A DNA stretch of 64,000 nucleotides from Candidatus Udaeobacter sp. (GTDB lineage Bacteria; Patescibacteriota; Patescibacteriia; Magasanikbacterales; GWA2-37-8): assembly GCA_035473115.1 (NCBI GenBank), contig DATION010000002.1:169374-233373 (forward strand), read 5' to 3'. A program made the position numbers and the translations under genes. This document shows, one piece after another, positions 11,010-43,021 of the stretch. Within the stretch, counting starts at the first letter, position 1; each line of letters begins with the position of its first letter. The notes below the pieces were generated by a model that had not been told where the DNA came from, made no database searches, and saw nothing but the letters and a program-made list of their open reading frames with translations.

Positions 11010-11045
11010 CGACGCTGAGCGTCGTAATAGGAACGCTTAGCGTTC
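11010..11045. promoter_or_regulatory. twin palindromes ACGCTGAGCGT / ACGCTTAGCGT spaced 21 bp centre to centre
   Basis: cgACGCTGAGCGTcg-taatag-gaACGCTTAGCGTtc, immediately 3' of tmRNA and 5' of infC. The same pair occurs at 50369-50404. Confidence 0.6.
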
Positions 11046-13305: not shown

Positions 13306-13311
13306 CTCACA

Positions 13312-17633: not shown

Positions 17634-17697
17634 ATTTTAATATTAAAACAAAAAAGACGCTTCATTTTTATGGCGCGTCTTTTTGTTTTAAAGCTAT

Positions 17698-17997: not shown

Positions 17998-18033
17998 AAA
18001 TTATATATAATTAAATTAATATATACCCGACCT

Positions 18034-21006
18034 TTACTTATTGATTTTAAAATTTGCTATTGAATTTACGATCTCGTCAAATCTGCTTTTATCGCCGGAA
18101 ATTTCTATTACATTACGGCTATTTTTAAATCCATTCGGATATAATTCAATAGATTTTCTAAAACCGCCGCTGGCTAATTCTATATTATCAAACACTTTTG
18201 CTTGATATCCGTTCCAAACTGTTGTGGTTGATAAATTAGAACTGGAATTAGCTGAGCCGTCATGCTGAGAAATAATGAAGAAATGAGTTTGATAATCCTG
18301 GCTGCTAAATTCTATTCTTTTTTCTTTATGAGAAACAGCCCACGAAGCAGGATAAAAAATACTAAATTTCACAAAACTATCTTCATTATAAATTGATTTC
18401 TGCTGATCTTTTTCTTCTGTAAATTCTTTAATTAATTCCTTTTTTAACTGAGATTTAGCCACAGCCAATTGATTAGCTATTTCTATCTGTGAATTTTGAA
18501 CGGATAGTTTGCCACCAATATTTTGGCAATTATAACCACCCAAAACAGTAACTAACCCTAATACTCCGAAAATTAAAAGCATTTTGGAAGCGCTGGCTAG
18601 TTTAATGAAAGCGTTTGGTTTAACGGCAACTTTCTTTTCCATCATGGCTATGCGTTCACGGGTTTTAAGAGTTGTATCCGGATTAAGTGAAATACTATCT
18701 ATACCCTCTTGCACCAAAAATTCAGCAAATTCCGGATAATCACTTGGCGCTTGGCCGCAAATACCGACTTTGCGCTTATTTTCATGAGCAACTTTTATTA
18801 CTTGGCGAATCAAAGTTTTTACTGCTTCATTTTTTTCATCATAAACATGACTGACCAAAGCTGAATCTCTGTCCACACCCAAAGTAAGCTGGGTTAAGTC
18901 GTTTGAACCAATACTAAAGCCGTCAAAAATCTCACAGAATTCTTTAGCCAAAATTACATTGGCCGGAATTTCACACATTACATAAACTTTTAAGCCATCT
19001 TTTCCGCGTTCCAAACCAAATTCTTTCATGGTGGCTAAAACTTTTTTACCTTCTTCTATAGTGCGACAAAACGGCACCATAATAATCAAGTTCTTCATCC
19101 CCCATTCATTTCGTACTTTTTTGATGGCCTCGCATTCAAGTTTAAATCCAGGTTTATATTTTTCATCATAGTAGCGAGAAGCGCCGCGCCAGCCGATCAT
19201 TGGATTTTCTTCTTTCGGTTCGTAATTCTTACCGCCGATAAGAGTGGCGTATTCATTGGTTTTGAAATCAGACAAACGAACAATTACGTCGTTAGGAGCA
19301 AAAGCTCCGGTAATAAAGGCGATACCTTCGGCTAATTTATCAACACAAAATTTAGCTTTATCTTTATAGCCGACTGTCAACGCATCGATCTTTTCTTTTA
19401 TATCCGGAGATTGGTCTTTGTAATTGACCAGCGCCAAAGGATGAATTTTAACAAAATTGGTAAAGATAAATTCTTCTCGCGCCAAACCAACGCCATCATT
19501 TGGTATATTGGCCAAAGAAAAAGCGCTGCTTGGATCACCAATATTCATCATTACTCTGGTGCGAGTAGCGGAAACATTTTTGATTTCGGTTTTATTGACT
19601 TCAAACGGTAATAAGCCTTTATAAATATAACCGGTGTCGCCTTCGGCGCAAGAAACTGTAATTTTTTGGCCATTTTTTATCAGTTGACGAGCTTTGGCAG
19701 CTCCGACAACACATGGCGTACCTAGTTCACGGCTCACAATAGCGGCATGAGAAGTTTTGCCGCCTTGTTCGGTTACTATGGCGCTGGCCATGCGCATAAT
19801 TGGCTCCCAATCCGGATCAGTAATGCGAGTAACTAAAACCTCTCCTGCTTTAAATTGCTTCATCTGCTTTGGCGAATTTATTACTCTGGCATTGCCTTGA
19901 CCAATTTTTTGACCAACACTTGAACCAGTAAGTAAAACTTCACCTTTCTGTTTTAGCTGGTATTGTTCAATAACATTTATCTTGGCTCTGGATTTAACTG
20001 TTTCCGATCTGGCCTGGACAATAAAGAGCTTGCCGGTAGTGCCATCTTTGGCCCATTCAATATCCATCGGATGACCATAATGTTCTTCTATGATTACACC
20101 CCATTTAGCTAACTGCAAAACTTCATCATCGGTTAAGCAATATTGTTTTTGATCGGAAGTTTTAACTTTTTCCTGTTTGGTACCAACTGCACCATAAACT
20201 AATTTAACCTCTTTACTGCCCAAATGCTTGCTGATAATAGATTTAAAGCCATTTTTTAAGCCTTCTTTAAATACATAAAATTGATCTGGAATAACCTGGC
20301 CTTTAACAACATATTCGCCCAAACCATAAGCGGCATTTATTAAAACTACGCCTTTAAAACCAGATTCGGTATCCAAAGTAAACATGACGCCACTGGCGCC
20401 AACATCGGATCGCACCATTTCTTGTACGCCCACAGACAAAGCAATGGCTGTATGATCAAAACCTTTATCTTCACGATAAGAAATCGCTCGATCTGTAAAT
20501 AGAGAGGCAATGCATTTTTTGGCGGCCAGTAATAACTCTTTATCACCGCGAACATTTAAATAAGTTTCTTGCTGTCCGGCAAAACTGGCATCAGGCAAAT
20601 CTTCGGCTGTGGCGCTGCTGCGCACAGCGACGTCTAAATTAGTTTTCTTGGCTGACTTACAAAGTTCTTTATAAAAATTCTTAATTTCTTGTTCAATATT
20701 TTTGGGAAAAGTTGCGGCCAAAATCATTTTTCTAATTTTGCTGCCGACTCTTTCTAATTCTTTAATATCTTTTTTATTCAAACCGCTTAAAACTTCTTTA
20801 ATTTTTTTATCCAATTTATTTTCACTCAAAAAAGACCGATAGGCTTCAGCTGTTAAAGCAAACCCATTTGGCACTGGCACGCCTTTGGATTTTAACTTGG
20901 CGTACATTTCTCCCAGAGAGGCGTTTTTGCCGCCTACGGAAGGAATATCATTGATGGTAAGATCTTTGAACCAACTTATATACATAGTGAATATATTATA
21001 CCACAA
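18034..21006 (-). CDS. ppsA: phosphoenolpyruvate synthase (pyruvate, water dikinase) with ~190-aa C-terminal extension containing a TM segment
   Basis: Phospho-His motif GGKTSHAAIVSRELGTPCVVG, an ATP-grasp N-domain and a PEP-utilising C-domain. After ...NPDTTLKTRERIAMMEKK the ORF continues through MLLIFGVLGLVTVLGG into an unknown domain. Confidence 0.85.
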   Translation of the reverse strand: MWYNIFTMYISWFKDLTINDIPSVGGKNASLGEMYAKLKSKGVPVPNGFALTAEAYRSFLSENKLDKKIKEVLSGLNKKDIKELERVGSKIRKMILAATFPKNIEQEIKNFYKELCKSAKKTNLDVAVRSSATAEDLPDASFAGQQETYLNVRGDKELLLAAKKCIASLFTDRAISYREDKGFDHTAIALSVGVQEMVRSDVGASGVMFTLDTESGFKGVVLINAAYGLGEYVVKGQVIPDQFYVFKEGLKNGFKSIISKHLGSKEVKLVYGAVGTKQEKVKTSDQKQYCLTDDEVLQLAKWGVIIEEHYGHPMDIEWAKDGTTGKLFIVQARSETVKSRAKINVIEQYQLKQKGEVLLTGSSVGQKIGQGNARVINSPKQMKQFKAGEVLVTRITDPDWEPIMRMASAIVTEQGGKTSHAAIVSRELGTPCVVGAAKARQLIKNGQKITVSCAEGDTGYIYKGLLPFEVNKTEIKNVSATRTRVMMNIGDPSSAFSLANIPNDGVGLAREEFIFTNFVKIHPLALVNYKDQSPDIKEKIDALTVGYKDKAKFCVDKLAEGIAFITGAFAPNDVIVRLSDFKTNEYATLIGGKNYEPKEENPMIGWRGASRYYDEKYKPGFKLECEAIKKVRNEWGMKNLIIMVPFCRTIEEGKKVLATMKEFGLERGKDGLKVYVMCEIPANVILAKEFCEIFDGFSIGSNDLTQLTLGVDRDSALVSHVYDEKNEAVKTLIRQVIKVAHENKRKVGICGQAPSDYPEFAEFLVQEGIDSISLNPDTTLKTRERIAMMEKKVAVKPNAFIKLASASKMLLIFGVLGLVTVLGGYNCQNIGGKLSVQNSQIEIANQLAVAKSQLKKELIKEFTEEKDQQKSIYNEDSFVKFSIFYPASWAVSHKEKRIEFSSQDYQTHFFIISQHDGSANSSSNLSTTTVWNGYQAKVFDNIELASGGFRKSIELYPNGFKNSRNVIEISGDKSRFDEIVNSIANFKINK

Positions 21007-23159: not shown

Positions 23160-23948
23160 TTATCGTAAAAATCCCATATACCAATTAATTATCTGACTTC
23201 CCCATAATAAAACAAAAAAAGCGCTCGCAGACAAAAAAGTGCCAAACGGTATAGCGCTGCCCAACTTTTTTTTACCGGCGGCAATAAGGAGCAACCCAAA
23301 AACAGCTCCGCTTATATAAGATAGAAATAAAGCCAGTAAAACTGCTGGCCAACCTAGCCAAACTCCCAGCATAAAGCCTAAACGCACATCGCCTCCACCT
23401 ATCCACTGGCCTTGAGAAAACAAAAATTGCGCCAAAAAAAATCCACCCGCCAGCAAAAAGCCAATCAGCATTGAAAGCAAACTAATGTGTAAATAAATAT
23501 TAAAAAATAATCCGCCTAGCGCGCCAAGCCAAATTACTTCGGGCAAAATCTCTTCGTATAGCCAATCATAAAGAAATACAACAATCAGCAAAGCGGAAAA
23601 AAATATATCTCTAAAAAAAACAACCGGCGAAATAGTCAAACTGCCCAAGCTATGCCAAGCTACCAACAAAAAAATTAAAGCTGTACTAAGTTCCACAAAA
23701 ATAAAATGTTTGGGAATCAAAGTTTTGCAAGTACGGCACTTTCCTAACAAAAATAAATAGCTAAAAACCGGAATATTTTCATACCAAGCCAGCTGCCGGC
23801 GGCAAACCAAACACATACTGCGAGTTTTGCCGATTTTAATTTTTTCATGAGTGCGCCAAACCCAGGAATTCAAAAAACTGCCCAGGATTAAGCCAAGAAA
23901 AAATATGATTATATAAGCAAATTGATTAATTAAAATTAGATCATTCAT
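23160..23948 (-). CDS. pilD: prepilin peptidase (A24 family, PilD-like)
   Basis: N-terminal Zn motif CLVCRRQLAWYENIPVFSYLFLLGKCRTCK and multiple TMs. Start taken at MNDLILI; the ORF extends to 23984. Confidence 0.85.
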   Translation of the reverse strand: MNDLILINQFAYIIIFFLGLILGSFLNSWVWRTHEKIKIGKTRSMCLVCRRQLAWYENIPVFSYLFLLGKCRTCKTLIPKHFIFVELSTALIFLLVAWHSLGSLTISPVVFFRDIFFSALLIVVFLYDWLYEEILPEVIWLGALGGLFFNIYLHISLLSMLIGFLLAGGFFLAQFLFSQGQWIGGGDVRLGFMLGVWLGWPAVLLALFLSYISGAVFGLLLIAAGKKKLGSAIPFGTFLSASAFFVLLWGSQIINWYMGFLR

Positions 23949-24042
23949 AATCGAAATGAGTGAGCAAAATACGCAGTGAAACATTTGTAAATCTCTTGTG
24001 ATCTAGAAATGTTGAATCTGTGTATTTACGAACGAATGAGAA

Positions 24043-24158: not shown

Positions 24159-24605
24159 TTACGGGCTGGTATCTGCTATTCCTGAAGGGCTAAGAGTAAC
24201 TTGACCGTTTAAGTTGCTCATAGTTGTTTCTAAGACGGCAGTAACCGAATAAGTACTGGAGCTACCTGTGTAGGTATACACATTAGTTCCGGTATTTACT
24301 GGATCTGAAGGTACTTGACCCATATAAGGAGAGCCACAACCTGCAGCTGCAAATCCGCTAGCATTTAAACAAGCTAGACTTCCAGCACCCAGTGATCCGC
24401 TACCTGAAGGATAAGCGGTTTGATCTGTATAAAAAAGTTCTAAAGCAGTTTGCAGTTGTTTCAAATCAGACAAACGTCTCGCATCGCGAGCTTTCTGTCT
24501 GGCATTTCCTAAAGCTACGACAGCTAAAGTTGATAACAAACCGATAATAGCTATAACTACCAACAACTCGATCAAGGTGAAACCTTTCTTATTCATGTTT
24601 TTCAT
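24159..24605 (-). CDS. type IV pilin (prepilin with class III signal)
   Basis: [24 protein letters not shown] is the canonical N-methyl-Phe/Glu5 pilin N-terminus. Strong SD AGGGGGGTGA. Confidence 0.9.
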
Positions 24606-25072: not shown

Positions 25073-26212
25073 CTATACTGCGCGCATTGCCAAACCGATA
25101 GCCACAGACATCCGAGGCCCAATTTGACGCAAAACAGGCTTTAAACCGTCCTGATAAACTACTCTGGCCCAAGCATCACCGACATAACATTTAATCTTGA
25201 ATTTATCTTGAATATATTTTGCCAAAAACGGCATCAGGGCTATGCCGCCGGTCAAAATTATTTTTTCCGGACGCTTGCCTTCGTTGCCGGTCTGGCGCAA
25301 ATATAATTCCAGACTTACTTCAATTTCTTTAAAAATAGGATCTATGACCGGCATCAAGATATCCAGCCATTTTTGTTCGCTCAAAATATTATTATTGCCA
25401 GCGGCCAGATAATCGAACATATCATACTTAATCTGCCCAACTAGGTCGTGTTCCACGCCTAAAATATTTTGCAAAATTTTATCTATCTTATCGCCTCCAG
25501 ATTCAATACTTTGGTGCGTAATCGGCACTCCCTGATCAACTATAAAAAAGTTGGTTCTCTCTGAGCCAATATCTATAATCATTGCCACTGCCTGATCGCG
25601 GCCGATTAGGGCTCTGGCCAAAGCGGTAGATTCTGGTTCCAGAGCTTCTAATGACAGGCCCGCGCGCTGAAAAATCTTAGAATAAAATTCTATCATTTTG
25701 TGCGGCACGGCATTGAGTAAAATACGCTGAGTTTTATCTTCGGAAGAACTTTTTAAAATTTGATAATCCAAAGCCATTTCTTCTAGCGGCATAGGCAGAA
25801 GTTTTTTTACTTCCGCTTTCACCAAATGATCTAATTCATCTTTTTTGACAATCGGCAAAGTTACCACCGCGTGAAAAACAGAAGAAACCGGCAGGCTGAC
25901 TACGGCTGTTTTAGAAAGTATTCGTGAAGTTTTGCAGATTGTTTTTATAGCCGAAGCATACTTGTCTATCTGAGCTTCTGCTAATTGGTCAGTCGGAGCG
26001 GCCGTGATTTCTTTTTTGGCTGAGTTTGAGCCAACAAGACTGGCAATGTTTTTTTCTTCGTTAACTAAAAGTTTATGGACATCCTGTTTATTGGAAGTCA
26101 AGCCATAAGAAAACAAAACCGGCCTATTTTTTTCTAGGCGTAATTCAACCATTTTTATTCCGCCGGATCCGATATCAACTCCCAAATAAGATTTTTGTTT
26201 TTTCCAAAACAT
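25073..26212 (-). CDS. pilM: type IV pilus assembly ATPase-fold protein PilM
   Basis: N-terminal YLGVDIGSGGIKMVEL actin-like fold. Conserved position next to the pilin gene. Confidence 0.8.
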   Translation of the reverse strand: MFWKKQKSYLGVDIGSGGIKMVELRLEKNRPVLFSYGLTSNKQDVHKLLVNEEKNIASLVGSNSAKKEITAAPTDQLAEAQIDKYASAIKTICKTSRILSKTAVVSLPVSSVFHAVVTLPIVKKDELDHLVKAEVKKLLPMPLEEMALDYQILKSSSEDKTQRILLNAVPHKMIEFYSKIFQRAGLSLEALEPESTALARALIGRDQAVAMIIDIGSERTNFFIVDQGVPITHQSIESGGDKIDKILQNILGVEHDLVGQIKYDMFDYLAAGNNNILSEQKWLDILMPVIDPIFKEIEVSLELYLRQTGNEGKRPEKIILTGGIALMPFLAKYIQDKFKIKCYVGDAWARVVYQDGLKPVLRQIGPRMSVAIGLAMRAV

Positions 26213-28397: not shown

Positions 28398-28429
28398 TTG
28401 ACAAATCAGCAATTTTGTGCTATTATAAT
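28398..28429 (+). promoter_or_regulatory. sigma70 promoter TTGACA-17-TATTAT(AAT)
   Basis: TTGACAaatcagcaattttgtgcTATTATAAT. The leader contains the palindrome tgagtttgaaactca. Confidence 0.5.
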
Positions 28430-28544
28430 TTGTTGTTTAGTGAGTTTGAAACTCATATTGACCCCAGCCGAGACAAGCGTTTCGGCGAGTCAAAGGGGTT
28501 TTAACCGCTTTCAACACACTCAGAACCATACAGAGGAGAACACC

Positions 28545-28916
28545 ATGAAGACCGCCCTTTTCGTCACGATCGTCGCCCTGGCCACCACCTTCGGGGGGTG
28601 TGTCATCGACGACATCCAGTTCCGCCCGACCTTCTGCAGCGGCGATCGGTCGCTCGAAGGTCCGTGGACCTGCAGCTGCTCCGGCAGCGCCTGCCACTCG
28701 GACGAGCCGAGCGCCCAGGATGTCGCCACGTGGAGGCCGGTCATCAAGATCGAGCCCAACGAGGAGGAGACCATGTGCGTCATGTCCGCAGAGCGACACT
28801 TCAGTGTCGACTATGCGACCACGCACATGCACGTGGAACTGGACCAATCCGGTTCGAAAAAAATGACCCTGACCTTCGCCACCGATGACGGTCGGCAGTT
28901 CACCTGCACCAGGTGA
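28545..28916 (+). CDS. small Cys-rich secreted lipoprotein, hypothetical (high-GC island)
   Basis: GAGGAG SD 6 nt before the ATG. Signal peptide with lipobox TFGGC. ~63% GC against ~36% flanks. Confidence 0.65.
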   Translation: MKTALFVTIVALATTFGGCVIDDIQFRPTFCSGDRSLEGPWTCSCSGSACHSDEPSAQDVATWRPVIKIEPNEEETMCVMSAERHFSVDYATTHMHVELDQSGSKKMTLTFATDDGRQFTCTR

Positions 28917-29000
28917 CTCCGCCTCCATCCATTTCCGCTCCGGAACGCTTGACGTTCTGCCAGCGGACGCTGTCACGACGCCTCGTGACCAACACAAAAA

Positions 29001-30058: not shown

Positions 30059-30565
30059 ATGGCAGACAAAAAAATATTTCCCACAATGATTTCGGAAACA
30101 AATCCAGAAATTAAAGCTCCGCTAGAAGAGCTTGATTTAAAATTGGAAAAAGAAAGCTTTACCGAAAAAGAATCCACCGAACAAAAACCAACCCCCGAAG
30201 ATCTGGCCAGCCCGGCTGCCGAAAAAATCCAGCAACTGTCTCGCAAACCGCACAAGCCTAGACCAGCTATACCTCAAGTCGCCAAAAATGCCGTCATGAT
30301 CAAAATCGAAAAAATAATGGAAGACGGATTAAATGATTCTTACCAGCGCCTCTCCCCTGTTGCCAAACAAGAGTTTAAAATAAAAGGAGAAGAAGCGGCC
30401 GCTCAAATCGGCGAACTCCTCAAAAGCAGTCATGTAAAAGCTAAAAAAATATTGCGTTTAGTTTTAGATTGGCTGCGCATGCTGCCAGGAATAAATCATT
30501 TCTTTTTGGAACAAGAAGCCAAAATAAAAACAGACAGAATTATCGCTCTAAAAGACAAGATTTAA
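30059..30565 (+). CDS. hypothetical soluble protein
   Basis: Start at MADKK, with no TM and a charged N-terminal half. Immediately upstream of the ATPase gene. Confidence 0.5.
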   Translation: MADKKIFPTMISETNPEIKAPLEELDLKLEKESFTEKESTEQKPTPEDLASPAAEKIQQLSRKPHKPRPAIPQVAKNAVMIKIEKIMEDGLNDSYQRLSPVAKQEFKIKGEEAAAQIGELLKSSHVKAKKILRLVLDWLRMLPGINHFFLEQEAKIKTDRIIALKDKI

Positions 30566-30568: not shown

Positions 30569-33124
30569 ATGCCCGCATTTTTTAATTCCTTAAATAATAT
30601 TTTGAATTTCCTTTTAAGGAATAGTTTTTTTAGATCATTGCTCTTACCCGCTTTAGGATTAATAGTTTTTATTTCCTTACTATATATCTTAAGAGCAGTA
30701 CTGATGACCAAAAGCCGCGAAAGCAAAGCTTTTCACAAAACTATTCTGCTCATAAAAGTTCCCAAAGAAAAAAAGAGCGACAAACCGGAATCAAGCGGCG
30801 GAGAAAATAATCTTAATCAAATAAGAGAAGAAATTGCTGTCTCAGAAACAATTTTTTCCGCTATTGCCGGTCTAAAACGAGAAAGCGGATTGCTTGCCTG
30901 GCTAAAAGGCCGCAACGACCATGTTTCTTTCGAAATCGTAGTCAAAGACAGCAAAATATCTTTTTATGTGGCTGTGCCCGATAAAACCAAAGGGTTTGTG
31001 GAACAGCAAATTCACGCTCAATACCCTCACGCCGAAATTACCGAAGAACCTGATTATAATATTTTTAAACCGCAAAGCCATATTGTCGGCGCTTATTTAT
31101 GGCTCAAACATAGCTCCAGCTTTCCTCTAAAAACCTATAAAACTTTAGACAGTGACCCACTGGTAGCACTGCTTAATCCGCTGAGTAAAATTTTAGAAGA
31201 TGAAGGCGCTGTAATTCAGTGCATCGTTCGTCCGGCCACCAATAAATGGCGCAAAGAAGGAGTGGAACTAATCCGCAACATCAAAAAAGGAGAAAAATTT
31301 GAAGACGCTGCCAAACGCAGTTTGCTAAGTAAATTTTTAAAAGGCCTGGGCGAGGCTTTGGTTTCTAGTAAAAAGAAAACCGATCCGCAACAAGCTCCAA
31401 AAACTTACCAGATAACCCAGATGGAAGAAGAGATGGTCAAGCACATGGAAGAAAAAATCAGCCGCGGCGGACTGGAAACTACTTTGCGTTTAATAAGTTC
31501 GGCCAACAGCAAAGAAAAAGCAATGTTAAATTTAGAAAACATTGTCAATGCTTTTAGTCAATATAATTTGTATCGTTACGGCAATACTTTGGCCGCGATT
31601 GTGCCTCGCCGACCTAGCACTCTTATCCGTGATTCAATTTATCGTTCCATGCGCGATGATAAATATATGGTGCTCAACACCGAAGAAATGACTAGTCTTT
31701 GGCACTTGCCTATTCCCAACACCGAAACTCCCAACATCAACTGGCTGGGAGCGCGCAAAGCTCCACCGCCAACCAATATTCCCAAAGAAGGTATTATTCT
31801 GGGCCGTTCAGTTTATAGAGGTGAAGAAACTATTATCCGCATGAAAAGAGATGATCGGCGTCGTCATCTTTATGCTATCGGTAAATCCGGCAGCGGCAAA
31901 TCTGTGTTTATCCAAAACTTGGCGGTTCAAGATATTATTAATGGCGAAGGTGTTTGTGTCATCGATCCACACGGCGATTTTGTGGAATATGTTTTACAAC
32001 ATGTGCCCAAAGAAAGAGCCGAGGATGTAGTTTATTTCAATCCTTCCGATGTAGAAAGACCGATCGGTTTAAACATGTTAGAAATAAATACCGAAGAACA
32101 AAAGGATTTTGCCACTCAAGAAATGATTTCTATCTTTTATAAACTAGTTACCGACCCATCAATGATCGGCCCGATGTTTGAACACAACATGCGCAACGTG
32201 ATGCTTACTTTGATGGCCGACATGAAAAACCCAGGCACTATCGCTGAAGTCCCTCGCATGTTTACCGATGACGAATTTGTTAATGAATGGAAGAAAAAAT
32301 TAACCGATCCGATGGTTTTGGCTTTCTGGGAAAAAGAGATGGCCAAAACTTCTGACTTCCATAAATCAGAAATGTTGGGTTATTTAATTTCCAAAGTCGG
32401 CCGCTTCGTCGAGAATTCCATGATCCGCAATATTATTGGCCAATCCCATTCCGGATTTAACTTCCGCGAAATAATGGATAAGAAAAAAATATTACTGGTA
32501 AACTTGGCCAAAGGTTTGGTCGGAGAAATAAACTCCAATTTGCTCGGTTTAATTATCGTGTCCAAACTGCAGATGACTGCTCTGGAGCGCGCTTCCCTAC
32601 CCGAAGACCAACGCAATGATTTTTATTTATATATCGATGAGTTCCAAAACTTTATTACTGAATCTATCGCTACCATTCTTTCCGAAGCCAGAAAATATCG
32701 CTTAGAGCTTATCATTGCTCATCAGTATATGAAACAGTTGGAAGACAACAAGGGTAAAACCACCGTGCGCGATGCTGTGCTTGGTAATGCCGGTACGATT
32801 GTCTCTTTCCGCATCGGTGTAGAAGATGCCGAAATCTTGGCCAAAGAGTTTGCGCCGGTCTTTAGCGCTTATGATTTGGTAAATGTGGAACAATACACCG
32901 CTTATACCAAGCTCTTAATTGACAATACTGCTGCCAAGCCGTTTAATATGCTTACTTATCCGCCTCGATCGGGCAACAAAGAACTGGCTGCCGCCATCAA
33001 AGAACTCTCTCGGCTAAAATACGGCCGGCCAAGAGAAATTGTGGAAGCGGAAATCAACGAACGAGCCCGTTTGGGAGTAGCTATTGCCGGAAGCGACACG
33101 GCTGCTAGCGAACCATCATTATAA
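30569..33124 (+). CDS. membrane-anchored FtsK/HerA/VirB4-superfamily P-loop ATPase (T4SS-type ATPase-like)
   Basis: N-terminal TM. Walker A YAIGKSGSGKSVF, then CVIDPHGDFVEY, Walker B LYIDEFQNF, and a HQYMKQL box. The first ~420 aa are paralogous to the protein at 38582-40027. Confidence 0.75.
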   Translation: MPAFFNSLNNILNFLLRNSFFRSLLLPALGLIVFISLLYILRAVLMTKSRESKAFHKTILLIKVPKEKKSDKPESSGGENNLNQIREEIAVSETIFSAIAGLKRESGLLAWLKGRNDHVSFEIVVKDSKISFYVAVPDKTKGFVEQQIHAQYPHAEITEEPDYNIFKPQSHIVGAYLWLKHSSSFPLKTYKTLDSDPLVALLNPLSKILEDEGAVIQCIVRPATNKWRKEGVELIRNIKKGEKFEDAAKRSLLSKFLKGLGEALVSSKKKTDPQQAPKTYQITQMEEEMVKHMEEKISRGGLETTLRLISSANSKEKAMLNLENIVNAFSQYNLYRYGNTLAAIVPRRPSTLIRDSIYRSMRDDKYMVLNTEEMTSLWHLPIPNTETPNINWLGARKAPPPTNIPKEGIILGRSVYRGEETIIRMKRDDRRRHLYAIGKSGSGKSVFIQNLAVQDIINGEGVCVIDPHGDFVEYVLQHVPKERAEDVVYFNPSDVERPIGLNMLEINTEEQKDFATQEMISIFYKLVTDPSMIGPMFEHNMRNVMLTLMADMKNPGTIAEVPRMFTDDEFVNEWKKKLTDPMVLAFWEKEMAKTSDFHKSEMLGYLISKVGRFVENSMIRNIIGQSHSGFNFREIMDKKKILLVNLAKGLVGEINSNLLGLIIVSKLQMTALERASLPEDQRNDFYLYIDEFQNFITESIATILSEARKYRLELIIAHQYMKQLEDNKGKTTVRDAVLGNAGTIVSFRIGVEDAEILAKEFAPVFSAYDLVNVEQYTAYTKLLIDNTAAKPFNMLTYPPRSGNKELAAAIKELSRLKYGRPREIVEAEINERARLGVAIAGSDTAASEPSL

Positions 33125-33128: not shown

Positions 33129-34736
33129 ATGTCTACAATTTACCGTAAATACCGCCCGCAGAAATTTGCTGACATTGTTGGTCAGCAACATATTATCAAA
33201 ACAATTACTAACGAAATAACTAGCGATAAGATTGCCCACGCTTATCTTTTTTCCGGTCCACGCGGCACTGGCAAAACCACTCTAGCTCGCCTGTTGGCTA
33301 AATCTATAAATTGTCAAGATCGTAAAAAAGATAAATTTGAACCTTGCGGTACTTGTTCGGCTTGTACGGAAATTACTAACAGCCACAGTATTGATGTTAT
33401 CGAAATTGATGCTGCCAGCCATACTGGTGTAGATAATGTACGCGAAAATATTATCGACAACGCCCAATTTAAACCAACTAAACTAAAATACAAAGTATTT
33501 ATCATCGACGAAGTCCACATGCTTTCCACCAGCGCTTTTAACGCTCTCTTAAAAACATTAGAAGAACCGCCAAGCCATGTGATTTTTATTCTGGCCACTA
33601 CCGAACAGCACAAACTGCCGGCTACCATTATCTCTCGCTGCCAACGATTCAGCTTCAAACGAGTTGGCTACGATGATATGCTTGGGCGGCTGGAGGAAAT
33701 CTGCAAAAATGAAAAAATAAAAATTGATAAAAAAGTTTTAGAAAGAATCATCAACAAAAGCGATGGCTGCATGCGCGATGCCGAAAGTTTACTTGGGCAA
33801 GTCTTAAGTTTGGATCTAAAAAATATTTCTGCCGAAGACGCCGAGATGATCTTGCCAACTTCTAATGTTGAAACAGTGCTGGAATTTATTAATTTTATTT
33901 TAGAAAAAGAAACCAGCTCCGGCCTAAAATTAATTAATCAGCTGGTTGGCGACGGCGTAAATCTGGAGCAATTTGTTTATGACTGTTTAGAAGTCTTGCG
34001 CCTACTGATGATTTTGCAAATTGATTCGCAAACAAAAAATATTAATACCGATTACAGCGCCGAAGCTGTCAAAACACTCAAAAAACTATCAGCTAAAATT
34101 TCTGCGCCCCAACTAATAAAAATGATTGAATCATTGATTGCTCGCCGCCAAGAAATAAAATCTGCGCCAATGCCACAGCTGCCTTTGGAATTATTTATTG
34201 TGGAATTTACTTGCGCCCCTGACATATCAAATTCCGATATATCAGCTGTAATTCCGACGAAGAAAGAGGAATCCCTGTCTGGTAAGGAAAAAGAAATGGA
34301 CAGAGATCCCTCGTCAGCTAAAGCCTCGCTCGGGATGACAGCCTTGCCAGAAAAACATCACTCCATTTCTCAAACCATAAAAGATGCCGTTTCTTCTATC
34401 ACTCACGGAGCGCCAATTAAAACAACTCTGGAAGAAATAAAAGCCAAATGGGATGAATTAATCCAAGCCATTGCCAAAGATAACCATTCCTTGGGTTTTA
34501 TCTTAAAAATGTGCAAAATTGAAGATATCAGCAACGACGGACTGCGTGTATCTGTCCCCTATTCTTTTCATAAAGACAAACTGGACGAAAATAAAACCAA
34601 AAAAACTATCGAGCAATACTTGACTGACTTTTTCTCTGAACGAATAATGCTGCACTGCGAAGTTTTGGAAACTGTAAATGAAACTAACGACGAATTAAAT
34701 AAATTAGCCGCTGATTTCGGCGGAGAGGTTATCTAA
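33129..34736 (+). CDS. dnaX: DNA polymerase III subunit gamma/tau
   Basis: GPRGTGKTT Walker A, Zn module CQDRKKDKFEPCGTCSAC and DEVHMLS. Confidence 0.9.
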   Translation: MSTIYRKYRPQKFADIVGQQHIIKTITNEITSDKIAHAYLFSGPRGTGKTTLARLLAKSINCQDRKKDKFEPCGTCSACTEITNSHSIDVIEIDAASHTGVDNVRENIIDNAQFKPTKLKYKVFIIDEVHMLSTSAFNALLKTLEEPPSHVIFILATTEQHKLPATIISRCQRFSFKRVGYDDMLGRLEEICKNEKIKIDKKVLERIINKSDGCMRDAESLLGQVLSLDLKNISAEDAEMILPTSNVETVLEFINFILEKETSSGLKLINQLVGDGVNLEQFVYDCLEVLRLLMILQIDSQTKNINTDYSAEAVKTLKKLSAKISAPQLIKMIESLIARRQEIKSAPMPQLPLELFIVEFTCAPDISNSDISAVIPTKKEESLSGKEKEMDRDPSSAKASLGMTALPEKHHSISQTIKDAVSSITHGAPIKTTLEEIKAKWDELIQAIAKDNHSLGFILKMCKIEDISNDGLRVSVPYSFHKDKLDENKTKKTIEQYLTDFFSERIMLHCEVLETVNETNDELNKLAADFGGEVI

Positions 34737-35575
34737 TGCAAAATATAAACTCAAAATTATTTCCTTTCGTTTTTCTAACAATATTTCTGATTGCTAGTCC
34801 TTTGGCTGCGCAAGCTGCAGACATGCTTAACCTGCCCGTGCCTTATATTTCCGAAGCTCCGGATGGGTTAATGGTTAAACCTTGGAACAATTCCTGCGAA
34901 GAGGCTTCCATGTCGATGCTTGATGAATATTATGCCGGTAAGCGAGACAAAAAAACTGCCAATGATACTGCCAAAAAGTCTATCTTGCGCTATGTAAATA
35001 TTGAAAACGAAATTTTTGGCTACAACGGCAACACTAATGCCGCCGAAATTACTAAAACAGTAAACGACTATTCGAAATACTTTGAAGCGACTATAAAAAC
35101 TGATCCGACTTTGGAAGATATAAAAAATGAATTGCAAGCCAACCGGCCGGTAATCGCGCTTCTCTATGGCTACAACTTACAAAATCCACGCATTTTATTT
35201 TCCCGAACCGGCTCCTATTACCACACTTTTGTTATCAAAGGCTTTGATGACACGAACAAAGAATTTATTGTAAATGATAACGGCGACCTGCAAAAAGGCC
35301 TTGACTTGCGCTATTCTTATGATACAATCATGGGCGCTCTACGTGACTATGATCACAAAACTGCCAAGACAGTAAAACCGGCCACAGTGCTGTTTTCTAG
35401 CCAAAGAATGCTGGTAAAAACAGCTAGCAGCAACCGAATTTACGTGATTAAAGATGGTCAAAAACACCACATTACCTCTCCACAAGTGTTTAAAGATCGC
35501 AACTGGAAATGGAGTTTGGTAATGACCGTAGAAAAGGCTTGGTTGGATAAATTTGAGTCAGGATCGGCAATATAA
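34736..35575 (+). CDS. secreted C39-like (papain-fold) peptidase domain protein
   Basis: Signal peptide, then Cys in NNSCEEASMSM and His in YYHTFVIKGFDD, consistent with peptidase_C39-like. Confidence 0.5.
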   Translation: MQNINSKLFPFVFLTIFLIASPLAAQAADMLNLPVPYISEAPDGLMVKPWNNSCEEASMSMLDEYYAGKRDKKTANDTAKKSILRYVNIENEIFGYNGNTNAAEITKTVNDYSKYFEATIKTDPTLEDIKNELQANRPVIALLYGYNLQNPRILFSRTGSYYHTFVIKGFDDTNKEFIVNDNGDLQKGLDLRYSYDTIMGALRDYDHKTAKTVKPATVLFSSQRMLVKTASSNRIYVIKDGQKHHITSPQVFKDRNWKWSLVMTVEKAWLDKFESGSAI

Positions 35576-35664: not shown

Positions 35665-35735
35665 TCCGAGGTGGTCTAATGGTAGGACAGCAGACTCTGA
35701 ATCTGCTTATCTTGGTTCGAATCCAAGCCTCGGAA
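35665..35735 (+). tRNA. tRNA-Gln (anticodon CTG)
   Basis: Acceptor tccgagg/cctcgga, anticodon loop ctCTGaa, T-loop ttcgaat. Confidence 0.8.
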
Positions 35736-35885
35736 CAAAATCTACCATCTAAAACAACTACCACTAAATACTACCCATTGACTAACGGGTTGTTTTATGA
35801 TATATAAATACCAGTTTGTAGCATTTTTTGTGATACAAACCAATCCTAGGCCCAAGCGAGCCTACCCAAAAAAGGAGCAATCGCC

Positions 35886-38322: not shown

Positions 38323-38490
38323 ATGTCCAATCTCCGTTGCGGATACGTCAAGAATGCCAATACTGGCGAGCAGTGTGGTGGCGAACTGATCTTATGTACA
38401 CGTGGCCACAATCATGATGTGTACAAATGTACAAAAAAAGGATGCGAAAGAACAAATCGCATTTCACATGAACCAAGCGCGGTAGCCTGA
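38323..38490 (+). CDS. small (55 aa) Cys/His-rich zinc-ribbon-like protein, not in ORF track
   Basis: AAGAGGT SD 5 nt before the ATG. Sequence C6...C18...C25..H29xH31...C36...C41. GC higher than the surroundings. Confidence 0.4.
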   Translation: MSNLRCGYVKNANTGEQCGGELILCTRGHNHDVYKCTKKGCERTNRISHEPSAVA

Positions 38491-38581: not shown

Positions 38582-40027
38582 TTAAGCGTAAGGCAAATCT
38601 GCCGGCGGCTGCCCCAGACCTGGAGTATTTTCTTCTTCAGGCAAAGCAGCTTCAACCGGTTCTTCTTTAACTTTTTTTCGTAACGGACTCTCCACAACTT
38701 CTTCAATCGGCAAATTAATTGGCGGTTCAGCTCTCTTGCTGGCCGTCTTTTGTAATAACGGAGCTTTAACCAGCGGCAATGGGAAGTGCCATAAAGTAGC
38801 CAGTTCTTCGATATTTAAAATAAACGGATTTTTGCCAATCTTAATTTTTCTCTTTTTAAAAGCGCTAACAAATTGGTTTTTTCCTTTGTCATTTTTGGGA
38901 GACAAAACCGGCACAATCGCATTACGTCCAGGATAAGAAAATTGATTGATAGCACCGATTAAGCCTTCCAAACAGCGGCTAGGCTTAAAAGCTTCCTTTT
39001 CCGCTGCATACATTACCCGAATTTTAGCTTTAAAACCAATCTTACTAATTTTTTCTTCAATGGCCACAATAGTATCTCTCATTCCCGGACTCAAATCGCT
39101 CACTTTGCCAGGAGCAGCCTTTTCTTCTTTTTTCTTTACCACCGCTTCACCAGGTGAAGCGATATTGTGCAAAATATCGGTAGCGACACTGTTTAAAATC
39201 TTGAGCAAGAAATTTTGTTTAACTTCGTGCTTTTTATTTTCAATCAAAGATTTGACCAGCTTGTTGCCTTTTTCGTGCAGACTGTTTTTAACCAAACCAA
39301 TGCCATGCTCTTTCCACTTACTGGAAATAGGCTCTACGATAATCTGCAACCACAAATTTTCTCCCGCGCCAATGCGGGTAAAATTTTCTAAGATCGCAGC
39401 CATCGGATCATTAAAAGTAAAATCCGGAGTCACGCTATGTTCAAAATCAGAATAAGTTCTGATCGGGTACGCGTCTTCGGTAGCCAAACCGAACTCAATA
39501 CCAACTACATCATGAGTTTTGTTTGGGTAAGTATTAGGAATTACGGAAACATAATCTTCGACTTCAGTTATTTCGGCCATTGGATATTGGGCATAAACAG
39601 CTGCTTCCACCAAATCTCGGAATTTTTCTTCGGTATAGACCAAAAATTGAATATAGCCTTCTAGACTAATAACTTCCAAACTAAACCAGCGCTGCTTGAA
39701 TCCCGGGCCGTACTTATCGGCCACACTTGAGCCGCTATGGGCGCCGCTGATAATGGCAAAAATCTGCTCTACCGCTTTTGGGCTTTGGATGGTATCTGGC
39801 GGAACATCCACAGCCAAGACAGTCCATTTCCAATCACTGGTATATTTGGTCTGCCGCAATGATGCCCACAACTCCGCACCCATAAAAAACAAGATCAAAG
39901 CCAAAATTGCCCAGCCGATGATAGCAAAAACAACCTTGCCCAGCTCAAAACTTGGCAATTCTAAAATTGTTCCCCAGAAAGATAAATCAGCGACAAAACC
40001 AAATGGCAATTCTACGGTTGTTGGCAT
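38582..40027 (-). CDS. standalone paralog of the N-terminal domain of the VirB4/HerA-like ATPase (no P-loop)
   Basis: Two N-terminal hydrophobic segments. Shared blocks AQYPMAEITEVEDY and EELATLWHFPLPL...RAEPPINLP match the 30569-33124 product. ATG at 40027; the ORF track uses TTG at 40033. Confidence 0.7.
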   Translation of the reverse strand: MPTTVELPFGFVADLSFWGTILELPSFELGKVVFAIIGWAILALILFFMGAELWASLRQTKYTSDWKWTVLAVDVPPDTIQSPKAVEQIFAIISGAHSGSSVADKYGPGFKQRWFSLEVISLEGYIQFLVYTEEKFRDLVEAAVYAQYPMAEITEVEDYVSVIPNTYPNKTHDVVGIEFGLATEDAYPIRTYSDFEHSVTPDFTFNDPMAAILENFTRIGAGENLWLQIIVEPISSKWKEHGIGLVKNSLHEKGNKLVKSLIENKKHEVKQNFLLKILNSVATDILHNIASPGEAVVKKKEEKAAPGKVSDLSPGMRDTIVAIEEKISKIGFKAKIRVMYAAEKEAFKPSRCLEGLIGAINQFSYPGRNAIVPVLSPKNDKGKNQFVSAFKKRKIKIGKNPFILNIEELATLWHFPLPLVKAPLLQKTASKRAEPPINLPIEEVVESPLRKKVKEEPVEAALPEEENTPGLGQPPADLPYA

Positions 40028-40051: not shown

Positions 40052-40213
40052 TTATTTCTTGACAATACTAAGAACTCCGCCATAAATTATCAAAACACCA
40101 AATATTGTCCATTTCAAACCATACTGATGCGAAATCCAGCCGCTGTAATAAGCTAAGGCGCAAATAACCGTAGCTAGCAGCGCTATCAGATGCCGAATAA
40201 GATTATCGGACAT
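40052..40213 (-). CDS. 53-aa two-TM small membrane protein, not in ORF track
   Basis: MSDNLIRHLIALLATVICALAYYSGWISHQYGLKWTIFGVLIIYGGVLSIVKK. 24 nt upstream of the paralog gene on the same strand. Confidence 0.4.
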   Translation of the reverse strand: MSDNLIRHLIALLATVICALAYYSGWISHQYGLKWTIFGVLIIYGGVLSIVKK

Positions 40214-40331
40214 ATAGAATTTAATTACTAATAAACAACCGAGCTTACAACTTAAAATATTATATCATATTTATAGCAAAAACAAAACTCGTTTTTTAGA
40301 CGAGTTTTGTAAGTATTTAAAGTATAAATTA

Positions 40332-41249
40332 TTAGGCATTTTTACCCAAGCGCCAAGTTTGCGCCAATACCAACAGCGGACTAGCAATAAATATAGAAGA
40401 ATAAGCGCCGCTGGCAATACCGATAAGCAGAGCCAAAGCAAAATTATGAATTGTTGGACCACCCAAGAAATACAGAGCAAACAGAGGCAGCAAAGTAATT
40501 AAGGTTGTATTAATTGAACGCATCAAAGTTTGATTCAAACCCATATTCACCATTTCAGCAAAATTCTGGGCGCTATGATGGTTTAAGTTCTCTCTGATTC
40601 GGTCATAAACTACGATCGTATCGGTAACTGAATAACCTAACACAGTTAGCAAGGCTACCACAAAGCCAATATCAATTTCTATGCCTCTAAAATGGCCTAG
40701 GAGTGTAAATACCCCCACCACCAACATAACATCATGAATAAGGGCAATAATGGCCAAAACACCGTATTTCCAGCTGGCTACCGGTCTAGACACTCCACGG
40801 AACGCGTAAGCTACGTAGATAATAATACCCAAATTTACTAAAATTATAGCCGCAATAGCTCTTTGACGTAATTGACTACTGATAACTGAACCAATGGTTT
40901 GAAAATTTTCTTCATGGATTTCATTGCCATCAGTTTGATATTCAGCTCTTAAGTTGCTAAGAATAAATTGATGCTGATCTTCGGTCAAAAATTCAGTGCG
41001 AATAATATAACCATTGTCCCCTACTTTTTGAATAACCGCATTTGGCTGATGCAGATCAGCCAAAGTTTTTTGCATGCTTTCTACAGCCGGAATACTCTTG
41101 CTAAAGGTAAGTTCGGTTAAAGATCCGCCGGTAAAATCAATGCCTAACTTTAAACCTAAAAATATAAATAAGGTTATACAGGTTAAAACTGTCAGGGCGC
41201 TAATTGTTACCCAAACTTTTGTATACTTGATGAAAGGAATATTAATCAT
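40332..41249 (-). CDS. secF: protein translocase subunit SecF
   Basis: ~300 aa, 6 TM, follows secD. Confidence 0.85.
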   Translation of the reverse strand: MINIPFIKYTKVWVTISALTVLTCITLFIFLGLKLGIDFTGGSLTELTFSKSIPAVESMQKTLADLHQPNAVIQKVGDNGYIIRTEFLTEDQHQFILSNLRAEYQTDGNEIHEENFQTIGSVISSQLRQRAIAAIILVNLGIIIYVAYAFRGVSRPVASWKYGVLAIIALIHDVMLVVGVFTLLGHFRGIEIDIGFVVALLTVLGYSVTDTIVVYDRIRENLNHHSAQNFAEMVNMGLNQTLMRSINTTLITLLPLFALYFLGGPTIHNFALALLIGIASGAYSSIFIASPLLVLAQTWRLGKNA

Positions 41250-41260: not shown

Positions 41261-43021
41261 TTATTTAATTTCTGATTCAACTGCTTTTGTCTGATGACCT
41301 AAAAATAACCAATTACCATTATCTTTAAACCAATGCAAAACTAAACGCATTATGGTGCGAGTAACAATAATCGCCGTAAACATACTGACTAACACACCAA
41401 TAGCCAAAGTAACAGCAAAACCTTTCACAAAACCGGTACCGAACCAAATGAGACAGACACAGCTGATAAGCGCACTCACATTACTATCACGAATTGACGG
41501 CCAAGCGCGGACGAAAGCTTCCTCCATAGCTGAGCGTAAATTTTTGCCCAAACGCAATTCTTCTTTTAGACGCTCAAACACCAAAACATTGGCATCCACC
41601 GCCACCCCGATAGACAGGACAAAACCGGCAATACCGGAAAGGGTAAGAGTAACACCAATCAATTTAAATATTGCCAAAGACACAGCTGCATAGGCCATCA
41701 AAGCCAAACCAGCCAAGACACCTGGCAAGCGATAGTAGAAAATCATGAAAATAATAACTGCTAGTAAACCAGCTACTCCGGCTTTGAAGCTTTTAGCCAA
41801 AGAATCTGACCCTAAAGTGGCGCCGATTTTCTGCTGACTGATTAAATCAACTGAAACCGGTAAAGCACCGGAATTCAAACGCTGAGCCAACAGTCTGGCT
41901 TCTTGAATAGAAAAACTTCCCGAAATAACGGCGCTGCCGGTTAAAATCGGCTCATTAACTCTTGGAATGCTAACTGGAGTGCCATCCAAAAATATGGCTA
42001 CCGGCTTGCCAATATTGCGTTTGGTTAGATCGGCAAACAGCTGTGTACCTTCATCATTGAATTGCAAATTTACCTGCACTTGGCCGGTGCGAGTATCTTG
42101 AGTTACTTCGGTTCTTTTTAATTGTTTACCGGATAAACCAGTGTTCTTCCATTGATCGGAGGCAGGCACAATGTCTATCGGCTGTTTTGTTTTTACAAAA
42201 ATTCTGGCAACGTTGTATAGTTTGGTTGGGGAAGCCGTTTGACCAGCTTCTTCCTTAACAGAAATTCTTTTAATAATATTTAAACCATCAAAACTTTTTA
42301 CCAGTTCTTTGCTTACTTCTCCGTCTTTATGAGCGTCAGCCCATTTATAAATATCGGGAAAAACTTCATTATCAATAAAACCTAAAGCGCCGCCATTAGT
42401 TTTGCTTCTTTCATCTTCGGAATATTTGGCTGCGACATCGGCAAAGTCTTGGCCTTTATTTACCGCTGCCAAAGCTTCTTTAATTTTTTTATCCGCTTGC
42501 GCGTTAAAATCATTCATCTCTTTTGTTTCAGCTGCAGTTAATTCTCTAAGCGGTTTATCATCGCCTTCTTTAAATTCCAAAATTGGCGTTTCCCCGATCA
42601 TTTTAATAGCTTGATTAACATCAGTTACGCCCGGCAATTCCACAATGATACGATAATCATTATTAGCAACTTTGGTTGTCTGCACCAAAGGTTCGGATAC
42701 TCCCAAACCACCGCGCACCCGGCGTTCAATCACATCGCGCACACCTTCAACTGCGCCAGCTCTGTCGCTGTCGGCTATAGTGTCAGTTTTGGCTTGATAG
42801 ATAAGATGGGCTCCGCCTTGCAGATCCAACCCTAAATTAAAACCGGAAGCAGGAAAGTTTGGCAAACCTACATTGGCTTTTTTATTTACCCAATCTATGC
42901 CTTTGTTGGCATAAACCGGAAATACAATTAACAGACAAAAAACAGTTAAAATAAAAATACTAAAAACGCGCCATTTTAATTTTTCTCTGGACAGAACTTT
43001 GACCTGATTTCTTACAGCCAT
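41261..43021 (-). CDS. secD: protein translocase subunit SecD
   Basis: N-terminal TM, large periplasmic domain and C-terminal 5-TM bundle. SecD-SecF gene order. Confidence 0.85.
   Translation of the reverse strand: MAVRNQVKVLSREKLKWRVFSIFILTVFCLLIVFPVYANKGIDWVNKKANVGLPNFPASGFNLGLDLQGGAHLIYQAKTDTIADSDRAGAVEGVRDVIERRVRGGLGVSEPLVQTTKVANNDYRIIVELPGVTDVNQAIKMIGETPILEFKEGDDKPLRELTAAETKEMNDFNAQADKKIKEALAAVNKGQDFADVAAKYSEDERSKTNGGALGFIDNEVFPDIYKWADAHKDGEVSKELVKSFDGLNIIKRISVKEEAGQTASPTKLYNVARIFVKTKQPIDIVPASDQWKNTGLSGKQLKRTEVTQDTRTGQVQVNLQFNDEGTQLFADLTKRNIGKPVAIFLDGTPVSIPRVNEPILTGSAVISGSFSIQEARLLAQRLNSGALPVSVDLISQQKIGATLGSDSLAKSFKAGVAGLLAVIIFMIFYYRLPGVLAGLALMAYAAVSLAIFKLIGVTLTLSGIAGFVLSIGVAVDANVLVFERLKEELRLGKNLRSAMEEAFVRAWPSIRDSNVSALISCVCLIWFGTGFVKGFAVTLAIGVLVSMFTAIIVTRTIMRLVLHWFKDNGNWLFLGHQTKAVESEIK

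Follow-up and report, generated by a model that had tools for sequence, protein, structure and literature searches.

Two membrane proteins that share an N-terminal domain of unknown function, DUF8128 (Pfam PF26449), are encoded in the stretch of DNA analyzed here, 64,000 nucleotides (nt) of contig DATION010000002.1 from assembly GCA_035473115.1 (hereafter, the window). In the larger of the two, 851 amino acids (aa) long, the domain is fused to an ATPase that, judged by its sequence, is a type IV coupling protein (T4CP) of the VirD4/TrwB family and not a VirB4/TraC protein; the smaller, 481 aa long, consists of the corresponding N-terminal part only. We interpret the former as a chromosomal, exapted coupling protein homolog and the latter as the orphaned N-terminal half of a second copy that is normally split into two genes, the complete forms being membrane-tethered hexameric translocase motors, and put the probability of this interpretation at about 60%. 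An initial annotation of the window had instead described the ATPase as VirB4/TraC-like, with an N-domain duplicated as a separate gene.

Both open reading frames (ORFs) exist as they were described in the initial annotation, all of the ATPase motifs quoted there are found (the Walker A and B motifs, as well as DPHGD and AHQYMKQL), and its outline of the larger protein, a transmembrane (TM) segment followed by an N-terminal domain and an ATPase of the FtsK/HerA superfamily, is correct. According to precomputed annotation, the N-domain of both window proteins is PF26449.1 (DUF8128), and the exact fused protein carries PF10412, PF01935, PF02534 and PF12696 in addition; a Pfam scan detected no N-domain match in either protein, presumably because that copy of Pfam was without the PF26449 model, and a literature search found no paper that mentions PF26449 or DUF8128. 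The 481-aa protein is composed of a TM helix, an α/β N-domain, a disordered tail and a C-terminal motif. In a pairwise BLASTP comparison, residues 12–410 of the ATPase match its residues 9–445 with 26% identity and an E-value of 1e-33, and alignment of the two family profiles with hhalign gives a probability of 99.8% and an E-value of 3.7e-29 over 364 columns. These similarities, far beyond chance, identify the 481-aa protein as a true paralog of the TM and N-domain part of the ATPase; the span of residues originally given for the paralogy (~100–420) was too narrow, as the match includes the TM helix. As had been stated, the paralog has no P-loop: neither a Walker A pattern nor a match to an ATPase family of Pfam or NCBIfam is found in it. 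The most conserved stretch common to the two proteins is LNTEEMTSLWHLPIP...APPPTNIP, which marks the junction between the N-domain and the ATPase domain of the fused protein and has the form ...EELxxLWHxP...PPxNxP; the equivalent LNIEELATLWHFPLP...AEPPINLP at the end of the paralog's domain is nearly invariant among 50 family members.

The assignment of the ATPase to the coupling proteins is carried by profile searches. The fused protein matches TrwB_AAD_bind (PF10412) with an E-value of 2e-10 and 40.4 bits (gathering score 20.5), T4SS-DNA_transf (PF02534) with an E-value of 1e-9 and 38 bits (gathering score 20.1) and TraG-D_C (PF12696) with 28.7 bits (cut-off 22), and its best NCBIfam matches are the TraD and VirD4-like families. 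Of the profiles that the initial annotation had proposed for comparison, T4SS-DNA_transf and DUF87 (PF01935) match, whereas CagE_TrbE_VirB does not; TraC_F_IV is likewise absent from the Pfam and NCBIfam scans, in which the VirB4 model TIGR00929 stays at 15.7 bits, far below its cut-off of 643.1, and TIGR02746 at 18.4 bits, with a cut-off of 567. The sole solved relative found by sequence is TrwB (1e9r, E-value 1.4e-8). The membrane anchor of coupling proteins is present as well, in the form of one TM helix, whereas canonical T4CPs usually have two. Comparisons by hhalign of the fused ATPase family with pGO1 TrsE (a VirB4 protein; 72 columns around Walker A) and with the single sequence of pGO1 TrsK (a T4CP; a short, weak alignment) are uninformative because the profiles are shallow. 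In the AlphaFold2 (AF2) model of the full-length protein, the N-domain forms an α/β region, whereas the ATPase domain is of low confidence, with a predicted local distance difference test (pLDDT) of 30–75, and was not used for domain-level claims; a putative insert in this domain (aa 509–637) is modeled as helices only, with pLDDT 45–75, and the TrwB_AAD_bind alignment covers profile positions 9–323 of 387.

Full-length homologs from conjugative plasmids place this architecture within a known class. A tblastn search of plasmids with the fused protein yielded 302 records, 14 of which span 80% or more of the query and extend over most of the N-domain; the plasmid homologs belong to Actinobacteria (Streptomyces and Embleya), Firmicutes (Bacillus and Priestia), haloarchaea, and Sulfolobus. 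The 812-aa T4CP of the Embleya plasmid NZ_CP108778 (WP_331738717.1) is 28% identical to the window protein over 726 aa (E-value 2e-70) and, as a representative of the long-form T4CPs, has in common with it the membrane anchor, the T4CP nucleotide-binding domain (putatively interrupted by a helical insert) and the TraG-D_C region, together with the N-domain and a junction of the form ELxxLxHLP...PPxxIP. Its gene is flanked on one side by that of a VirB4-like ATPase, with PrgI upstream, and on the other side by genes for a replication-relaxation protein and an NlpC/P60 hydrolase; this cluster is a conjugative type IV secretion system (T4SS) with its own VirB4. Since the full-length homolog stands beside a separate VirB4, the architecture is the standard one of 'long' coupling proteins from monoderm conjugation systems. 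The junction motif is also found in Bacillus homologs and in Haladaptatus halobius (NZ_CP085339), where a 355-aa hypothetical protein, encoded directly upstream of a 932-aa T4SS DNA-binding protein, matches the window N-domain (E-value 4e-17) and ends with the motif. The fused form in Embleya and the separate genes in Haladaptatus suggest that the combination of this N-domain with a T4CP ATPase is an old monoderm and archaeal architecture, in which the N-domain is a separable module. The haloarchaeal pair differs from the genes of the window in being plasmid-borne (on a megaplasmid), the only copy, without a fused paralog and without a secDF context, and the fission seen there is probably independent. 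Unlike plasmid T4CPs, in turn, the window gene is chromosomal, lies in housekeeping synteny with no relaxase or T4SS genes nearby and is far more conserved, and a second, split copy exists in its phylum, Patescibacteria.

It is this split copy that accounts for the standalone DUF8128 protein. The initial annotation considered a decoupled N-domain unusual, but a survey of genomic context in related genomes shows the standalone N-domain to be common and linked to secDF. One search yielded more than 2,000 members of the family, and an exhaustive one at least 2,482 clusters at 50% identity; the best 150 relatives of the paralog are all standalone proteins of 270–690 aa, and in most of the other Patescibacteria sampled the domain is the N-terminal half (N-half) of a split ATPase pair. 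In a wider survey of 80 diverse metagenome loci, seeded with distant members of the DUF8128 family, the DUF8128 gene is immediately followed in 56 by an ATPase-domain match that is 42–48% identical to the window ATPase domain. In one locus (L094) the genes for a 487-aa N-half and a 590-aa ATPase half share 35 nt, and in another (L112) the N-half ends with ...PPPNLPM and a TAG codon, with the ATG of the ATPase half 3 nt later. Upstream, on the same strand, secF is present in 22 of the 47 loci with enough upstream DNA; L171 and L172 are examples of this linkage. A Kerfeldbacteria assembly (GCA_016214565.1) has the order secD, secF, Sigma70_r4/HARE-HTH gene, DUF8128 gene, TrwB_AAD_bind gene, and the same order recurs in a Parcubacteria-type contig, in which the ATPase half has a C-terminal zinc ribbon. 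The ATPase-only family is also large, lacks PF26449 and is annotated as 'type IV secretion system DNA-binding domain-containing protein'. The window paralog is 36% identical to the L094 N-half (E-value 1e-87), which itself is 24% identical to the N-domain of the fused ATPase (E-value 9e-25), and by these alignments the paralog is the ortholog of the first gene of the split pairs. Two further features of the split loci can be recorded. A helix-turn-helix (HTH) gene of the Sigma70_r4/HARE-HTH type, encoding 372–385 aa, lies between secF and the DUF8128 half in L094 (5810–6967), L171 (5458–6576) and L172 (5397–6551), giving a conserved five-gene cluster in non-Magasanik Patescibacteria, although a gene for a small membrane protein can take the place of the HTH gene; and many split ATPase halves end in a CxxC-x17-CxxC zinc ribbon (PF23477; for example, L112 8366–10153 and L172 8001–9857), which the fused window protein lacks.

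The nearest relatives of the window proteins carry the label Magasanikbacteria, class ABY1, and among 80 species-level genomes of the Magasanikbacteria group the locus has a different composition. Upstream of the DUF8128 gene and on the same strand, secF is found in 72 of the 80 loci, in the order secD-secF, and a gene for a 53-aa protein with two TM segments precedes the DUF8128 gene in 58 (48% identity in L003). No split-type ATPase was found around 85 Magasanik-type loci, to a distance of 7 kb. A second ATPase is not encoded in the window either, and downstream of the paralog neither a search at E ≤ 10 nor direct reading of the 286-nt gap revealed a remnant of an ATPase half. At the secDF locus, the Magasanikbacteria lineage lacks the ATPase half and has the 53-aa two-TM gene ahead of the N-half; the unusual feature here is the absence of the ATPase half from the locus of the standalone N-half. 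The standalone family nevertheless retains at least 80 invariant columns despite the missing ATPase half. The wider survey contains the 53-aa gene in 10 loci, in none of which an ATPase half follows the DUF8128 gene. As the initial annotation noted, the 53-aa protein has two hydrophobic segments, and it is conserved in relatives; it has no meaningful Pfam or NCBIfam match and no VirB3 or PrgI match at E ≤ 1, is similar to VirB3 only in size and in the two TM segments, and gave an E-value of 4e-5 in one comparison, uncorrected, with another TM protein, the 138-aa membrane protein encoded in L112. The 286-nt gap that follows the paralog gene contains, on the opposite strand, a 55-aa cysteine-rich, zinc-ribbon-like ORF (38323–38490, plus strand).

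The position of the PPxNLP motif marks the split point. The fused proteins have a single copy directly before the ATPase domain, whereas the standalone proteins have two, one right after the domain and one at the extreme C-terminus past a disordered linker; in the split pairs the stop codon and then the ATPase gene come directly after the terminal copy. Standalone proteins extend 29–280 aa beyond the WHxP motif, and a loose form of the C-terminal motif is present within the last 12 aa of 204 of 269 of them. The Magasanik orphans retain the terminal motif as well, with tails such as ELPYA, ELPYG and DLPYG.

In a neighbor-joining tree of ATPase domains, the fused and split forms constitute separate sister clades, followed by Embleya. 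The identity between fused and split ATPase domains is flat, at 41–48%, whatever the divergence of the N-halves (r = −0.16), and lies below that of SecA between the same groups (55–62%). Within the Magasanik group, by contrast, the ATPase surpasses SecA in conservation. This relation favors an old duplication, from which the fused and split forms would descend as two lineages.

Several lines of evidence suggest that the fused ATPase serves a core function. Its full-length orthologs are 75–80% identical where SecA is 71–77%, DnaX about 50–63% and the paralog 46–57% identical; across 120 clusters the fused family ranges from 72 to 100% identity, with means of 87% in the ATPase domain and 68% in the N-domain. 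The gene order corA, ~165-aa ORF, ATPase, dnaX, C39 peptidase recurs in three relatives (L001–L003), and the ATPase-dnaX order also occurs in 16 of 80 Magasanik loci within reach. The ORFs of the window that were scanned include no T4SS component, relaxase or integrase. A recent survey of T4CP homologs in Patescibacteria (Quinonero-Coronel et al. 2025, PMC12102498) reports, in the passages searched, 5,713 VirD4-profile matches in 2,918 of 3,035 genomes (about 96%), or about two per genome, of which only 148 are near virB4; VirB4 is found in 2,417 genomes, and relaxases number only 109. The T4CP homolog of S. epibionticum is reported to be non-essential, while its T4SS is essential (PMC12102498, PMC10633639), and the authors of the survey raise exaptation as an explanation. 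The window-type genes are very probably the same as these orphan T4CP homologs, whose role is described as an open question in PMC12102498, and the published counts fit a core function independent of T4SS. The searched passages of PMC12102498 do not mention DUF8128, fused and split forms, the secDF linkage or an orphan N-half. The orphan T4CPs thus acquire an anatomy, with a shared DUF8128 module, fused and split forms, a motif-marked split point, secDF and dnaX as neighbors and a conservation above that of SecA, which leads to concrete hypotheses on complex formation and core function in ultra-small bacteria.

The predicted structure of DUF8128 points to the other ATPase family of type IV secretion. 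For the AF2 model of the paralog (pLDDT 74.7, predicted template modeling score 0.66), the best matches found by Foldseek in the PDB are four chains of R388 TrwK/VirB4, with E-values of 9.5e-5 to 1.5e-3 and probabilities of 0.99–1.0. For the model of the complete ATPase, the top 13 matches are full-length TrwK over ~750 columns (probability 1.0 for the top match), ahead of DotL and the C-terminal domain of VirB4. As structures comprising only the VirB4 C-terminal domain and TrwB are absent from the matches of the paralog, the resemblance concerns the N-terminal domain of VirB4, and we predict with moderate confidence that DUF8128 has a similar fold. This would explain the VirB4-like organization proposed in the initial annotation, which appears to hold at the level of fold but fails by sequence. 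The common plan of two parts, an N-terminal domain and an ATPase of the FtsK/HerA type, hints at a structural link between the VirB4 and VirD4 ATPase families, and TrsD, encoded together with VirB4, provides a precedent for a gene for the N-half beside an ATPase gene in the same organisms. The window proteins differ from VirB4 and TrsD in several respects, as their sequences match neither the VirB4 N-domain profiles nor TrsD, the ATPase scores as a T4CP and the neighborhood is without VirB3, VirB6 or VirB8; homology of the paralog to TrsD was considered and rejected (hhalign probability 0.2% against pGO1 TrsD; no virB4 nearby). A profile search of the PDB with DUF8128 gave nothing at E ≤ 10. 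Below the VirB4 chains, Foldseek lists weak matches to the mycobacterial ESX-3 (type VII) translocon (6umm_A, E-value 0.02, and 6sgz_D). An FtsK-like ATPase is a component of type VII systems, too.

On the basis of these data, the fused and split forms would each constitute a hexameric T4CP-type ATPase that is tethered to the membrane and translocates a polymer there, both exapted from conjugation to a core, largely T4SS-independent function. The positively charged residues that follow the TM helix in both proteins would place DUF8128 on the ATPase side of the membrane, where it may form a cytoplasmic, membrane-proximal platform that anchors and organizes the ATPase ring, much like the N-terminal domain of VirB4. 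Packing of the PPxNLP segment onto the ATPase domain could take place in cis when fused and in trans in the split pairs. Since the orphan N-half keeps PPxNLP, it probably still docks onto an ATPase ring, either that of the fused paralog 5.5 kb away or that of an unlinked ATPase half, as an extra anchor or regulator. The nature of the substrate is the weakest step: we incline to nucleic acid, ranked slightly above protein, in view of the descent from T4CPs, the close spacing with dnaX and the zinc ribbon that many split ATPase halves carry. A bolder and rather speculative extension is a T4SS-independent membrane translocation machine made of coupling protein-type ATPase rings and DUF8128 subunits like the VirB4 N-domain, encoded with secDF when split, in which the Magasanikbacteria orphan hetero-oligomerizes with the fused ATPase via its tethered PPxNLP. 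Such a two-layer assembly would be reminiscent of the VirB4 hexamer of dimers, and the long coupling proteins would then trace this N-domain back to the ancestor shared by VirB4 and VirD4.

A number of observations weigh against parts of this interpretation. The secDF linkage points to protein export as much as the dnaX linkage points to DNA, and the docking of the orphan N-half onto an ATPase is a step that we infer. AF2 models the ATPase domain poorly (pLDDT 30–75), the Foldseek TM-scores are low (0.20–0.36) and no sequence method ties DUF8128 to VirB4. A terminator-like hairpin with an 11-bp stem and a T run (40282–40310, minus strand) separates secF from the 53-aa ORF in the window, which suggests that the pair formed by the 53-aa and DUF8128 genes may be a transcription unit apart from secDF here. 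The lineages that supplied the fused forms are not those that supplied the split forms, which leaves some room for orthology with accelerated change in place of an old duplication. Finally, published tables contain two T4CP-profile matches in two Magasanikbacteria genomes, so there may be an ATPase half at an unlinked site, and the 'orphan' may simply belong to a relocated pair.

Among the alternatives, the one that we regard as least improbable, if still unlikely, is that the ATPase is the working coupling protein of a VirB4-type T4SS encoded elsewhere in the same genome, typically near dnaA in Patescibacteria, and recruits protein or DNA to it, with the N-half as an accessory. The closest characterizable relatives of the ATPase are indeed coupling proteins within conjugative clusters, T4CP genes are often unlinked from virB4, and most Patescibacteria possess a T4SS of monoderm (MPF-FATA) ancestry (PMC12102498, in the passages searched). 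Those same passages give T4CP homologs, about two per genome, in about 500 more genomes than VirB4, and relaxases are nearly absent from the phylum; the S. epibionticum homolog is dispensable where its T4SS is essential, and a conservation above SecA combined with fixed housekeeping synteny is unlike conjugation genes. The standalone DUF8128 protein could, with low probability, be an ATPase-independent membrane protein that acts with the 53-aa protein alongside SecDF, for example as a translocon scaffold. The secD-secF genes immediately upstream in most Magasanik-type loci, the ten loci of the wider survey in which the 53-aa gene occurs without an adjacent ATPase half, and the invariant columns kept although that half is missing are all compatible with such a role; yet in other lineages the secDF-linked DUF8128 gene is always paired with an ATPase half, the retained C-terminal junction motif makes sense only beside an ATPase domain, and the hairpin intervenes between secF and the gene pair.

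The operon with dnaX could also be explained if the fused ATPase were an FtsK/SpoIIIE-like translocase of chromosomes or DNA in replication or segregation. The tight packing (gaps of 3–5 nt), which is conserved in relatives, the membership in the FtsK-HerA superfamily and the very high conservation agree with this, but we consider it improbable: the match to the FtsK_SpoIIIE profile (PF01580), 33 residues surrounding the P-loop, remains at 12.5 bits and so below the cut-off of 24, a gamma domain is lacking, and TM7x, a member of the phylum, has been reported to have FtsK. Similarly, the HerA equivalog NF040819 gives 13 bits against 970, and the α/β model of the N-domain has VirB4, not HerA, as its top PDB matches. 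The identification as a T4SS ATPase of the VirB4/TraC family, whose N-domain was recently duplicated as a separate gene, is very improbable, even though Foldseek ranks TrwK/VirB4 first for both models and TrsD sets a precedent for standalone VirB4 N-domain proteins; the VirB4 profiles fail, full-length homologs coexist with a separate VirB4, the paralog is without similarity to TrsD, and the duplicate is ancient and widespread. A decaying remnant of an integrated conjugative element would account for the T4CP ancestry and for the absence of the rest of a T4SS nearby, but its probability is negligible, given the intact ORFs, the identity of 72–100% across 120 clusters, the fixed housekeeping synteny and the absence from the window of any integrase, relaxase or repeat boundary. 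An exapted coupling protein, with the orphaned half of a split second copy, is the interpretation that we retain.

Table 1. Coordinates in the window of the two DUF8128 genes, their sequence features and neighboring genes
Feature	Position	Strand	Remark
Fused DUF8128 and T4CP-like ATPase, 851 aa	30569..33124	+	TM anchor, N-domain, ATPase
TM helix, aa 23-41 of ATPase	30635..30691	+	Hydropathy scan; AF2 helix 19-55
DUF8128 N-domain, aa ~56-410	30734..31798	+	Alignment to paralog; pLDDT mostly 80-90
Junction motif LNTEEMTSLWHLPIP...APPPTNIP	31673..31783	+	Immediately before ATPase domain
T4CP-type nucleotide-binding domain	31799..32968	+	TrwB_AAD_bind over aa 425-765
Walker A GKSGSGKS, aa 438-445	31880-31903	+	
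Helical insert of nucleotide-binding domain (putative)	~32066-32488	+	
Walker B YLYIDEFQNF, aa 686-695	32624-32653	+	
Standalone DUF8128 protein, 481 aa	38582..40027 (ORF to 40033, ATG at 40027)	-	PF26449, precomputed
TM helix of paralog, aa 32-50	39878..39934	-	Hydropathy scan; AF2 helix 26-63
Domain-end motif LNIEELATLWHFPLP...AEPPINLP	38708..38818	-	Aligns with ATPase junction motif
C-terminal motif repeat PPADLPYA	38585..38608	-	End of disordered tail
53-aa two-TM protein	40052..40213	-	19 nt upstream of paralog
secF	40332-41249	-	Upstream of standalone DUF8128 gene
secD	41261-43021	-	Upstream of standalone DUF8128 gene
168-aa partner ORF	30059..30565	+	Ends 3 nt before ATPase start
dnaX	33129..34736	+	Starts 5 nt past ATPase stop
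Peptidase_C39_2 gene	34736-35575		Directly after dnaX
PilD	23160-23984		Type IV pilus gene
Pilin	24159-24605		Type IV pilus gene
PilM	25073-26212		Type IV pilus gene

The window as a whole is a housekeeping stretch of a low-GC Patescibacteria genome, with ligA, pilD, a pilin gene, pilM, cysS, corA, dnaX, folD, secDF, secA and the gene for tmRNA. The exact 481-aa paralog is deposited as 'Candidatus Udaeobacter sp.' (Verrucomicrobiota), while every relative belongs to Patescibacteria, and the label of the bin is probably wrong. The initial annotation had pointed to type IV pilus genes next to the ATPase and to a host-associated lifestyle. The pilus genes are there, 4.4–7.4 kb upstream of the fused ATPase and separated from it by cysS, a membrane-protein gene, a GC-rich island and corA, but nothing links them functionally to the ATPase, and the connection to lifestyle finds no support in the sequence. 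The 168-aa partner ORF that precedes the ATPase (Table 1) has an acidic, disordered-looking N-terminal half and a conserved part confined to the C-terminal ~85 aa; it occupies the same position in four relatives (L001, L002, L003 and L043), and it has no meaningful match in Pfam or NCBIfam and no TM segment by hydropathy.

The GC-rich island, which lies between the membrane-protein gene and corA, spans ~600 bp (28400–29000) with 58–66% GC against a background of 33–40%; it contains a lipoprotein-like ORF (..MKTALFVTIVALATTFGGC..), is open in many frames and may be a foreign insertion or an assembly chimera. Elsewhere in the window, a 1,735-aa ORF (1746–6953, minus strand) has no Pfam match at E ≤ 0.001, the tmRNA gene is located at 10617–11012 (plus strand; Rfam, 123.9 bits), and genes for tRNA-Asp and tRNA-Gln occupy 13232–13306 and 35665–35736, respectively. 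In the relative GCA_030647465.1 (L003), a gene pair resembling a diversity-generating retroelement, with an RVT_1 reverse transcriptase and bAvd (16932–18349), sits between the ATPase locus and the standalone DUF8128 gene.

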